Positions 22,632 to 23,939 of a stretch of DNA of 64,000 bases are shown piece after piece. The stretch covers positions 352,001 through 416,000 of the forward strand of contig JBKAGE010000034.1 of the NCBI GenBank assembly GCA_046290225.1, written 5' to 3'. Origin of the DNA: Bradymonadia bacterium. Lineage in GTDB: Bacteria > Myxococcota_A > Bradymonadia > UBA7976 > UBA1532. The translations under genes were made by a program, and so were the position numbers. The notes beneath the pieces were generated by a model. That model was given only the letters and a program-made list of their open reading frames with translations, searched no databases and had not been told where the DNA came from. Position 1 is the stretch's first letter. Every line of letters starts with the position of its first letter.

Positions 22632-22747
22632 CGAGGCGTAGCTCAGCCAGGGAGAGCGCCCGCTGTTGAAAAATGGTGTCCGACTGTCTCGACGTCTTAC
22701 TTCGCTTTGGGGGCGGGAGGTCGCAGGTTCGAATCCTGCCGTCTCGC
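22632..22747 (+). tRNA. tRNA-Pro(TGG)-like RNA with a 42-nt insertion (22661-22702) in the anticodon stem; C discriminator; may be a tRNA-mimic ncRNA
   Basis: Acceptor CGAGGCG/CGTCTCG, D-arm GCTC/GAGC and T-arm GCAGG-TTCGAAT-CCTGC. Removing the insert gives CCCGC-TTTGGGG-GCGGG. Enclosed by a 28-bp stem (22599-22626/22752-22779). Confidence 0.75.
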
Positions 22748-22820
22748 AGTGTGCGCTGAGCAGGTGTCTCTCTGTTGGCCATTGGAGAAACCGGAAGAAG
22801 TTGCTGTTCGGCCCATGCAT

Positions 22821-22929
22821 CGAGGTGTAGCTCAGTCTGGTAGAGCGCTTGATGATGATGTCCGACTGCCTTGATGTCTTACTTCGCTTTGGGTGCGAGA
22901 GGTCGCAGGTTCGAATCCTGCCACCTCGA
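22821..22929 (+). tRNA. tRNA-Pro(TGG)-like RNA with a 35-nt insertion (22850-22884) in the anticodon stem
   Basis: Acceptor CGAGGTG/CACCTCG+A with intact D and T arms. Removing the insert gives CTCGC-TTTGGGT-GCGAG. Flanks 22804-22820/22929-22945 extend the acceptor helix. Confidence 0.75.
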
Positions 22930-22979
22930 TGGATGCGCCGAGCAGGATCTTCCTTCGGGTCGTGGGGCTGCGCCTCTTC

Positions 22980-23086
22980 GGGGGTGTAGCTCAGTGGTGA
23001 GAGCGCTATTACAGATTTCCGACTGTCTGGATGTCTTACTTCGACTGTCAATCGAGAGGTCGTGGGTTCGAATCCCACCGCCCCCG
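22980..23086 (+). tRNA. tRNA-Asp(GTC)-like RNA with a 34-nt insertion (23008-23041) in the anticodon stem
   Basis: Acceptor GGGGGTG/CGCCCCC+G. Removing the insert gives CTCGA-CTGTCAA-TCGAG. T-arm GTGGG-TTCGAAT-CCCAC. Enclosed by a perfect 15-bp stem (22959-22973/23091-23105). Confidence 0.75.
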
Positions 23087-23150
23087 CTCAGCGCAGCCCC
23101 ACGACATTTTCGTACGACGCAGTGACTCGAGATCGATGCGCCGTGCTCAT

Positions 23151-23224
23151 CGGAGTGTAGCTCAGCCTGGGAGAGCCGACGGTTTGGGGCCGTAAGGTCG
23201 CAGGTTCAAATCCTGCCACTCCGA
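23151..23224 (+). tRNA. tRNA-Pro(TGG), uninterrupted, CCA not encoded
   Basis: CGGAGTG/CACTCCG+A, anticodon arm GACGG-TTTGGGG-CCGTA (G-A mismatch at the top) and TTCAAAT T-loop. Confidence 0.85.
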
Positions 23225-23225
23225 C

Positions 23226-23420
23226 AGTGTTTTTCAGATCCTGCCCTTCGGGCGCCCCTCCGCTCCTACGGCTTCGCCTCCGTCGGCTGCGGGGCGTCCG
23301 GCCGCAGGCCGGACAGGATCGCGAGTGTTTTTAGGATCTTGCCCTTCGGGCGCCCCTCCGCTCATACGGCTTCGCCTCCGTCGGTTACGGGGCGTCCGGG
23401 CACAGGCCGGACAAGATCGC
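23226..23420. repeat. Two tandem copies (~97 nt) of a structured GC-rich palindromic repeat
   Basis: AGTGTTTTT..GATC(C/T)TGCCCTTCGGGCGCCCCTCCGCTC..CGGCTTCGCCTCCGTCGG..GGGGCGTCCGG..CAGGCCGGACA(G/A)GATCGC at 23226-23322 and 23324-23420. Confidence 0.9.
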
Positions 23421-23458
23421 GAGCTCACGCTCGCTGGTTCAGCCAAGGCGTTTTGACT

Positions 23459-23570
23459 GCGCCGTGATGGTTCGGGTGAGCTCATCCACTCAGGCTTCCG
23501 ACTGACTGGGTGTCTTACTTCGACTGAAACTCCAAGAATGTGGGTGGGCTCTCTCGAGCCATCACGGCGC
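23459..23570 (+). ncRNA. Long-hairpin ncRNA candidate carrying the shared 30-nt motif (23493-23522)
   Basis: 31-bp stem (23459-23489/23540-23570) with four G-U pairs and one mismatch. The loop contains GGCTTCCGACTGACTGGGTGTCTTACTTCG. Confidence 0.7.
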
Positions 23571-23583
23571 TGTCAATACTCAT

Positions 23584-23657
23584 CGGGGTGTAGCTCAGCC
23601 TGGAAGAGCGCACGGTTCGGGTCCGTGAGGCCGCAGGTTCAAATCCTGCCACCCCGA
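23584..23657 (+). tRNA. tRNA-Pro(CGG), uninterrupted, CCA not encoded
   Basis: CGGGGTG/CACCCCG+A, anticodon arm CACGG-TTCGGGT-CCGTG and canonical D and T arms. Confidence 0.9.
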
Positions 23658-23658
23658 C

Positions 23659-23755
23659 AGTGTTTTTCAGATCCTGCCCTTCGGGCGCCCCTCCGCTCCT
23701 GCGGCTTTGCCTCCGTCGGCTACGGGGCGTCCGGCCACAGGCCGGACAGGATCGC
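23659..23755. repeat. Third copy of the ~97-nt structured repeat
   Basis: Near-identical to 23226-23322 and again directly follows a tRNA-Pro 3' end. Confidence 0.9.
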
Positions 23756-23813
23756 AGGCTTCGCCTGCTGCCCATTTCCGCGTGCTGTGGTGACAACGGC
23801 ACTCCACCTGACC

Positions 23814-23939
23814 ACAGATGACTGTTGGTTTGGGTGCATCAACCCGACCAGGAGTCGGCACTTTGTGTGTCAACTCTTAGATGTCCAACTGACCGGGTGT
23901 CTTACTTCGACTGATGCATTCAAACGAGCAGTCATCTGT
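23814..23939 (+). ncRNA. Long-hairpin ncRNA/leader candidate carrying the shared 30-nt motif (23880-23909)
   Basis: 28-bp stem (23814-23841/23912-23939) with three G-U pairs and one mismatch. The loop holds a CCGAC/GTCGG hairpin and GATGTCCAACTGACCGGGTGTCTTACTTCG. Ends 57 nt before the TROVE ATG. Confidence 0.7.

Follow-up and report, generated by a model that had tools for sequence, protein, structure and literature searches.

A portable RNA module beside a Ro60-like protein gene in Bradymonadia: a probable protein docking site carried by tRNA look-alikes, hairpins and an rRNA look-alike

What might a short RNA hairpin be doing that recurs five times in a row of structured RNAs, three of which look like tRNAs with an interrupted anticodon arm, upstream of the gene for a Ro60-like protein? 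The question is raised by a 64,000-nucleotide (nt) stretch of DNA from a Bradymonadia bacterium (GenBank assembly GCA_046290225.1, contig JBKAGE010000034.1, positions 352,001 to 416,000 of the forward strand), which was analyzed as a whole and is called the window here; positions are numbered from its first letter. An original prediction made from the letters of the window had reported five copies of a 30-nt motif, equal in length and free of insertions and deletions, in which ACTG and GTCTTACTTCG are invariant, and that description was borne out throughout: the five copies lie exactly where they had been placed, between 22675 and 23909, all on the + strand, and equal length and both invariant stretches hold in 5/5 copies. 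The core pattern ACTG-N7-GTCTTACTTCG has five matches without a mismatch, against a chance expectation of 0.04 (standard deviation 0.20, largest value 1) in 100 dinucleotide shuffles. The motif belongs to an RNA module that is strictly linked to the neighboring TROVE gene across genomes, and we think it probable that the adjacent Ro60-like protein docks on this module and that the two define a new Y-RNA-like particle.

The host genome (8,582,528 bases in 83 contigs) was searched with the core pattern, up to two mismatches being allowed, and gave seven matches, namely the five exact cluster copies and two inexact ones (with one and two mismatches); the reversed control pattern gave 4+9 matches in the same search. 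A covariance model of the module, R1, found only the five window copies in the genome (expect (E) values 1.6e-8 to 1.1e-6), 150 of 2942 first-look candidates having been scored in that scan. The one-mismatch pattern match, 50 kb away (L006), has no R1 match and was dropped. Since the pattern and R1 scans find only the cluster copies, the two inexact matches aside, the motif is not a dispersed repeat, and an element of the repetitive extragenic palindromic (REP) or miniature inverted-repeat transposable element (MITE) type was ruled out by the presence of five copies on a single strand in a single 1.3-kb cluster. The genome-wide search for copies that had been proposed with the motif has accordingly been run, and it revealed neither scatter nor a second orientation.

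The module consists of a helix of 7–8 base pairs (bp), formed by strands that we call X and Y, and of conserved bases around it: strand X is followed by GAC (or AAC), and strand Y has CU on its 5' side and a single-stranded tail, UACUUCG, on its 3' side. In the window modules 3 nt join GAC to CU, which gives a closed hairpin that can be plugged into host RNAs. The five copies, all on the + strand, are at 22674..22704 (copy 1, R1 42.7 bits), 22856..22886 (copy 2, 42.2 bits), 23013..23043 (copy 3, 48.8 bits), 23492..23522 (copy 4, 42.7 bits) and 23879..23909 (copy 5, 41.8 bits, in which AAC replaces GAC). Variable stem positions had been said to switch between Watson-Crick and G-U pairs; changes within the window are indeed confined to wobbles or mismatches, and a non-pairing C.C or C.U closes the loop in copies 1 and 2. 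True compensatory changes were seen only once relatives were added to the window copies. Among 16 sequences 85.9% of cells pair and six of eight pairs change on both sides, while registers slid along the alignment pair in 25–56%. When 30 distinct helices were pooled (including those of the permuted form described below), x2–x8 paired in 87–100%, except for x4:y5 at 57% (G.G in 13/30), AU/GC/UA/CG exchanges occurred at four helix positions, and GAC or AAC followed strand X in 30/30. An alignment of 26 modules was made with the covariance model, MAFFT having misplaced 9-nt loops. Covariation among homologs, named at the outset as a check on the motif, is thus present in the 16 sequences, in the 30 pooled helices and in 17 cloverleaves that carry the module (below).

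Linkage to the TROVE gene was followed with R1 through 43 sources (the window and 42 related ones; 315,589 bases), where it made 33 matches. Of these, 32 have the tail and lie on the TROVE gene's strand, in 18 sources; the 33rd scores 16 bits and is without a tail. Some sources duplicate one population (L010=L023, L012=L022, L013=L029, L019 lies within L026, and L030 resembles L026). In six whole genomes, this one included, 12 of 13 R1 hits fall within about 1.4 kb upstream of the TROVE gene on the same strand; in the five others seven of eight hits adjoin the homologous gene, the eighth being weak and at a contig edge. The window copies are likewise 90–1320 nt upstream of the gene on its strand, and in L016 one copy is downstream of it. 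Only the TROVE gene, among 15 open reading frames (ORFs) of the window, matches in more than one related locus, and comparison of neighboring ORFs found no conserved partner gene (RtcB, RtcA, RtcR, PNPase, ligase or endonuclease) beside the locus. The module has persisted in this position although the proteins of the module-bearing genomes are only 50–68% identical. Recognition by the TROVE protein had also been proposed; the gene linkage stands by co-occurrence, and the binding itself is what we infer from it.

Beside homologs of 30–39% identity R1 finds no match. Reading of the upstream DNA and a dedicated scan revealed a permuted form in 11 of 19 such distant loci, metagenomic loci at 33–39% identity among them, as stand-alone RNAs of ~45–70 nt. 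Their order is CU, strand Y, UACUUC[G/U/A], a variable stretch of 10–39 nt (often a G+C-rich hairpin), strand X, and GAC or AAC; a few overlapping alternative pairings were disregarded in the scan. These RNAs place the helix at their ends, unlike the internal hairpin of the window, and in four of the 11 loci (L043, L045, L046 and L048) they are on the opposite strand. Because the hairpin of the window results when GAC and CU are linked through ~3 nt and the opposite end is opened, the inserted and permuted forms are, on their sequences, circular permutations of one two-strand motif. The form of the module tracks the divergence of the protein, being inserted at identities of at least 50% and permuted at 30–39%.

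Three window copies are carried by tRNA look-alikes, all on the + strand. In RNA 1 (22632..22747; Rfam tRNA 47.3 bits) the loop, UUUGGGG, is of the proline type, and 42 nt are inserted into the 5' strand of the anticodon stem; RNA 2 (22821..22929; 51.6 bits) has the proline-type loop UUUGGGU and a 35-nt insert, and RNA 3 (22980..23086; 52.5 bits) the loop CUGUCAA, with the triplet GUC, and a 34-nt insert. Each exceeds the Rfam tRNA gathering score of 29, with 44–48 nt left as an unaligned insert in the anticodon arm, and ARAGORN, run on the window, left all three uncalled, reporting only ordinary tRNA-Pro genes at 23151 and 23584. Our parse, which is anchored on the T arm with boundaries chosen to maximize pairing, gives each a 7-bp acceptor stem, a D arm, a T arm and a 7-nt anticodon-like loop; copies 1–3 split the 5' strand of the anticodon stem at about nt 29/30 of this otherwise complete cloverleaf. 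Three stem nucleotides precede the insert, and the last one or two bases of the module's tail (CG or G) serve as stem positions 30–31, after which the 7-nt loop follows. Judged as functional tRNAs, the look-alikes have no uninterrupted 5-bp anticodon stem, the 30–42-nt insert splitting it. With the anticodon arm removed, the bodies of RNAs 1 and 2 are closest to the genome's tRNA-Pro; the body of RNA 3 has no match to tRNA-Asp and is closest to His and Asn.

The same architecture recurs in relatives, where Rfam makes 18 tRNA-like matches of 103–108 nt in the first 15 loci. In 17 look-alikes aligned over cloverleaf plus module, 93.0% of cells pair, 21 of 29 pairs change on both sides, and slid registers give 39–52%; broken down by stem, 99.2% of acceptor cells and 100% of D and T cells pair, and two-sided changes occur. 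Figures for the split anticodon stem are lower owing to four glutamine-type sequences and L012, whose register is shifted by one. In addition, RNAs 1–3 are flanked by leader/trailer duplexes (22610–22631 with 22748–22769 for RNA 1, overall ~22610–22769; 22799–22820 with 22930–22951 for RNA 2; 22958–22979 with 23087–23108 for RNA 3) of -40.7, -23.3 and -36.3 kcal/mol, against a mean of -8.4 kcal/mol (standard deviation 3.4, minimum -19.9) for the 96 real tRNAs of the genome. The mature RNAs may include these duplexes, or the duplexes may serve in processing. As a family trait such stems were rejected, being absent from the 17 other tRNA look-alikes tested; the genome's real tRNAs lack them too.

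Copies 4 and 5 are carried by long hairpins, near the top of each. RNA 4 (23459..23570, + strand) folds at -67 kcal/mol (z-score -8.3), and the tail of its module can be read from the sequence to run into a 2-bp stem and a 7-nt loop, CUGAAAC; RNA 5 (23814..23939, + strand) folds at -63.8 kcal/mol (z-score -8.0). Together with the leader/trailer duplexes of RNAs 1–3, this means that each of the five RNAs has a long terminal stem. The claim that the motif sits in both tRNA and non-tRNA scaffolds thus held, copies 1–3 lying within Rfam tRNA matches and copies 4–5 in long hairpins. A self-cleaving ribozyme, a riboswitch or another known RNA family was considered for this region and set aside, Rfam at E<=10 over 22400–24100 having returned only tRNA and noise.

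A further carrier occurs in one lineage. In L026 (10776–13970, equal to G041:C125:43775–46969), L019 and the near-identical L030 a sequence that matches bacterial 23S rRNA over its full length contains the module and ends 66 nt upstream of the TROVE homolog. Alignment with the 23S rRNAs of E. coli and two relatives places a 41-nt insert in the 5' strand of helix 69, with the helix-69 loop and its 3' flank unchanged. No 16S, 5S or tRNA was found in the 19.8 kb of sequence analyzed around this copy, which is the only 23S match in its 10.8-Mb assembly. Universally conserved stretches (2058–2062, the P loop, 2447–2452, 2505–2506, the A loop, 2583–2585 and the sarcin-ricin loop) are altered in it and intact in the relatives' 23S genes; it scores 2188 bits, against 2896–2918 for the real 23S genes of relatives, and is 66% identical to E. 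coli 23S rRNA, against 76% for the relatives. Because catalytic-centre bases are lost and both bit score and E. coli identity are lower, this carrier is, as its sequence reads, an rRNA look-alike and not a working rRNA gene with an intron. The portability originally suggested for the motif proved to extend further than the window, the module being found in differing tRNA look-alikes, plain hairpins, a 23S-like helix 69 and permuted stand-alone RNAs.

The gene with which the module travels, P0001 (23997..25766, + strand), encodes a 589-amino-acid protein with a TROVE and a von Willebrand factor A (vWA)-like region and a predicted Ro60-like fold (Pfam TROVE 28.4 bits, cut-off 23); DUF7788, the vWA-like region, scores 26.3 bits, just below its cut-off of 27.1, and a search of NCBIfam gave no match. 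Its AlphaFold model, built with 46 homologs, has a predicted local distance difference test (pLDDT) score of 86.1, and all 13 of its 13 Foldseek matches at E<=0.001 are Ro60/TROVE structures, from Xenopus, human, Deinococcus and a Thermus phage among others, which the model is predicted to resemble over almost its full length (552–594 aligned columns, template modelling (TM) scores 0.42–0.64). We class P0001 as a predicted Ro60-fold paralog rather than as an established ortholog of Ro60, because the fold agrees but a sequence search finds no Ro60, and because a second TROVE gene of the same genome scores higher. That gene, on contig C35 (L064 284–2784), encodes 536 amino acids and reaches 55.5 bits combined with Pfam TROVE. 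Upstream of it there is also an array, of tRNA-like RNAs with 60–70-nt inserts that end in GUUACUUCG (345–486, Rfam tRNA 41.8 bits, and about 598–735); these have no R1 match. The promoter and leader sequence (...CTGCTCTAG[C/T]CTCAGAGCG) is similar in the L064 array and the window array.

The P0001 family is small and patchy. It comprises 75 proteins at E<=1e-5 among 5.8 billion clusters, mostly unnamed or called 'hypothetical protein', with one source using 'DUF2828 family protein'; counting this genome, it is present in 3/41 relatives and 7/401 sampled genomes of the phylum. Related records come from Bradymonadaceae, Nannocystaceae and other Myxococcota, and cultured Myxococcus and Pyxidicoccus species encode homologs that are 38–40% identical. 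A phage origin was considered and rejected: a viral collection gave three weak or distant loci, none with the module.

How would such a locus work if the module is the docking site of P0001? The protein would grip the module, and RNA and protein together would form a ribonucleoprotein working like Ro60/Y RNA particles; the tRNA-shaped part would be left free to engage tRNA- or ribosome-handling partners or, alternatively, would be displayed as a look-alike of translation RNAs, so that the carrier would act as a tether or bait. Array and gene are probably co-transcribed from a sigma-54-type promoter. Ro60/Y RNA particles are conserved from bacteria to humans, and to our knowledge only a few types of bacterial Y RNA have been recognized. 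In metazoan Y RNAs the Ro60-binding helix is formed by the two ends of the RNA and continues inward with one C bulged, a picture that is confirmed in part. The module resembles it in that strand X plus the start of the loop reads GGUCCGA, GAUCCGA or GUCCGA in a short helix and in that GAC is contained in the 3' strand; here, in contrast, both C's pair, GA opens the closing loop, a conserved tail follows the 3' strand, and a frequent G.G opposition (13/30) replaces the bulge. According to the accessible text of PMC4201824, Xenopus Ro60 contacts GGUCCGA, mainly on one strand. Exactly this sequence is present in the modules of L013, L014, L026/L030 and L031, and the window copies have GUCCGA (two), UUCCGA (two) and GUCCAA (one) at that site.

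The bacterial system closest in plan is YrlA/Rsr (RF02553; PMC4201824; bioRxiv 10.1101/312249), which, in the portions of these sources available to us, likewise combines a small RNA beside a Ro60-fold gene, a protein-binding module and a tRNA-like domain that has both a D arm and a T arm; in both systems the module is attached at the anticodon-stem position. In YrlA, the accessible part of bioRxiv 10.1101/312249 states, the Ro60-binding stem continues from the anticodon-stem position of the tRNA-like domain, and the RNA resembles a circularly permuted tRNA that ends in this stem, with the acceptor loop-closed and no anticodon loop. The RNAs described here have instead an open, covarying 7-bp acceptor stem at their ends, keep an anticodon-like loop and bear the module as a side branch; their motif is a helix with GAC and the tail UACUUCG, whereas the YrlA motif GNCGAAN0-1G is absent from the modules; and the putative partner protein comes from a separate small family. 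The same text gives all characterized Y RNAs a Ro60 site in the terminal stem (bioRxiv 10.1101/312249), whereas in the window the module is internal and the terminal stems are separate from it. Yrn1 of Deinococcus radiodurans, as far as the accessible descriptions go, shares some tRNA-like features and has a stem-loop between D-like and T-like arms at the anticodon-arm position; there, however, the Ro60 site is terminal and the tRNA likeness partial, and here the cloverleaf is complete and the site internal. The Salmonella rsr-yrlBA-rtcBA operon, sigma-54 dependent and RtcR-activated in the accessible parts of PMC7790460 and PMC9879122, is similar in having a Ro60-type gene and RNAs behind a sigma-54-type site, but no RtcB, RtcA or RtcR is conserved at our locus, where the promoter is a consensus match only. 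Likeness to known Ro60/Y RNA systems is thus real but partial, and the literature that we found on YrlA, Y RNA, Ro60/TROVE and DUF2828 does not describe this arrangement. Chen et al. 2014 (PMC4201824), in its accessible part, found relatively few Y RNAs in delta-proteobacteria, and the accessible part of its supplement, examined for six myxobacterial genera and for deltaproteobacteria, has YrlA candidates beside canonical 559–560-amino-acid Ro genes of Plesiocystis and Sorangium and not the P0001 family.

A number of observations weigh against the docking of a Ro60-like protein on this module. At the level of the RNA, only 2 bp of the inner anticodon stem remain after the insert, the tRNA look-alikes fold no better than shuffles (z-scores -0.04 to -1.5), the minimum-energy folds of whole RNAs 1 and 2 are without the hairpin, and the window helices are rich in G.U pairs and mismatches. 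Among the relatives, the permuted form was not found in eight of the 19 distant loci (L027, L028, L036, L044, L047, L053, L055 and L056; less than 30 nt of upstream sequence was scanned for L044 and L047), and L027 and L028, which are close homologs, have no full module and only a tail-less hairpin. The protein is a remote relative of Ro60: Pfam TROVE scores 28 bits over 50 residues, and the sequence search of P0001 against solved structures returned no Ro60 and nothing else of relevance. Finally, known Ro60 sites contain nothing that corresponds to the conserved tail UACUUCG, and neither of the Rfam Y RNA models (RF02553 YrlA and RF00019 Y_RNA) reaches its gathering score: YrlA, which requires 69 bits, comes no closer than 16.8 bits, at 22795–22854, off any module. 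Should docking nevertheless be correct, the locus is a candidate RNA partner for a separate, unstudied family of Ro60-fold proteins, and its docking site resembles a natural plug-in tag that comes in closed or permuted form, with carriers shaped like a tRNA, an rRNA or a hairpin. Such carriers suggest Ro60-fold proteins that are aimed at, or imitate, tRNAs and ribosomal RNA, and tRNA genes with odd inserts could then be parts of ribonucleoproteins and not introns or annotation errors.

Among the anticodon-like loops, U33 together with a purine at position 37 is present in 17 of 20 parsed look-alike loops. When bodies without the anticodon arm were compared with the 96 tRNAs of this one genome, a rough test that was applied to all loci, the identity of the loop agreed with that of the body in five of 15 (window RNAs 1 and 2, L008, L011 and L012); a general rule that loops match bodies was withdrawn on these numbers. 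L014, for example, has a leucine-type loop on a body with a short variable arm. L009 and L010 are 93% identical over 2 kb of DNA, and their look-alikes (L009 2542–2646 and L010 3790–3895) differ by one linker indel and by four consecutive bases at nt 34–37 (GUCA vs ACGG). This single comparison points to the loop as the variable, and presumably displayed, part of the RNA. Two more tRNA look-alikes in L011 (2020–2345) have an extra GNRA-capped hairpin (GCAA, GAGA) before the module, so that their anticodon arm is a larger multi-branch insert.

One explanation retains the module as a docking handle and adds a function for what it carries: the carriers would be look-alikes of functional centres of translation, namely anticodon loops of varying triplet on tRNA bodies and helix 69 on the degenerate full-length 23S copy, held on display by the protein through interchangeable handles. 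The particle may on this account be a bait or sensor for nucleases or other factors that attack anticodon loops and the decoding region of the ribosome; alternatively, it may carry the ring-shaped protein to ribosomes, in which case specificity would be set by the loop on display. Rapid retargeting of the display would be in keeping with the L009/L010 pair. We regard this fuller scheme as possible, though rather unlikely in its specifics.

Alternatively, the module could be an intervening sequence that is excised from pre-tRNAs, the exons then being rejoined with the TROVE protein as a possible helper. Structured segments that interrupt an anticodon arm recall tRNA introns of the bacterial group I or archaeal bulge-helix-bulge kind, and the interrupted 23S sequence of one relative recalls 23S intervening sequences. 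Without the insert, 20/20 look-alikes regain an anticodon stem of 5 bp and a loop of 7 nt, which is partly by construction of the parse; the 17/20 loops with U33 and a purine at 37 would suit a working anticodon, and the UGG loops of RNAs 1 and 2 agree with their bodies, which match tRNA-Pro. Against such splicing, module-bearing genes occur only beside the TROVE gene and never at ordinary tRNA loci, the genome already holds three plain tRNA-Pro(UGG) and three tRNA-Asp(GUC) genes, and loop and body are often non-cognate (agreement in only 5/15, the mismatch of L014, and one body with different loops in L009/L010). Splicing would have no substrate in copies 4 and 5 or in the permuted RNAs, universally conserved bases of the catalytic centre are lost from the 23S carrier, and no ligase or endonuclease gene is conserved nearby. 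Group I introns have a fold of more than 200 nt, and the canonical site of tRNA introns is 37/38; the inserts here are 30–42 nt, far below group I size, interrupt at about 29/30, and have no Rfam intron match. With redundant carriers that cluster at one gene, excision seems to us improbable.

It is also improbable, in our judgment, that some other factor (a tRNA-modifying enzyme, a synthetase or a ribonuclease), or an RNA that pairs with the tail, recognizes the module while the TROVE gene is merely co-regulated. An invariant single-stranded tail and the loop bases would suit a sequence-specific enzyme or an antisense partner, and the leader/trailer stems of RNAs 1–3 resemble processing stems. 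The TROVE gene alone, however, travels with the module, through ~30 loci and two architectures, and the form of the module shifts in step with the divergence of the TROVE protein.

Could the element instead be mainly a cis-acting signal of the operon, either a processing site or an operator for self-regulation? The leader of the TROVE gene contains a tail-less, permuted mini-module, CU-GAGCGG-aauacac-CCGCUC-GAC (23962..23985, + strand), directly before the ribosome-binding site (RBS) GGAGG, which came to light when the 130 nt upstream of the start codon were scanned for hairpins. A tail-less hairpin occupies the same place in L011, L027 and L028, where an identical ACCUCGC-gaccagccu-GCGAGGU precedes the RBS of the TROVE gene (L027 at about 1560–1600; about 40 nt ahead of the start codon in L028 and L011), and no other module-like element was found in L027 or L028. 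Overall, module-like hairpins are present in six of 17 leaders (full modules in two) compared with a shuffle mean of 0.28, and permuted forms are about 35–75 nt before the start codon in several loci. The leader mini-module is, from its sequence and position, a possible self-regulation site. For the element as a whole a cis role is quite implausible, in that five copies extend up to 1.3 kb upstream, the acceptor, D and T stems of the carrier cloverleaves covary, the permuted form is on the opposite strand in four loci, and the L016 copy is downstream of the gene. That a selfish REP/MITE-type sequence landed in these genes by chance has next to no likelihood: the host RNAs do differ and a truly dispersed ~100-nt repeat shares the region, but the five copies are on one strand in one 1.3-kb cluster of 8.6 Mb, always at an equivalent structural site, and covary across genomes whose proteins are 50–68% identical.

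A putative sigma-54-type promoter-like site, TGGCACGCCCCCTGCT (22570..22585, + strand), precedes RNA 1 by 62 nt. This is no more than a match to the consensus, reading TGGCAC-N5-CTGC in the pattern TGGC[AC][CT]-N5-[TC]TGC[ATC], of which the background here is about 21 per Mb per strand. In L009, L010, L011, L027 and L028 the pattern likewise precedes the RNA or the gene, on the strand of the latter, and it also precedes the L064 array. Scanning for sigma-70 signals gave no promoter-like site and a single terminator-like one, which is at chance level. A near-identical sigma-54-like site, TGGCACGGCCCCTGCT, is at 19317–19332, 70 nt before a YfbK-type vWA-domain gene (19387–20970), which may be co-regulated with the RNA array; L010 has a homolog of this vWA-domain gene downstream of its TROVE gene.

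The array also includes the two ordinary tRNA-Pro genes, both on the + strand and both recognized by ARAGORN and Rfam, at 23151..23225 (UGG) and 23584..23658 (CGG). The ~100-nt repeat mentioned above, which is G+C-rich and strongly folding, follows each of them, once in tandem (23226–23330, 23326–23432 and 23659–23765). Nine other contigs have at least 17 more copies between them, in either orientation, including one that immediately follows another tRNA-Pro gene, and this repeat is a dispersed REP/MITE-like element that is unrelated to the module.

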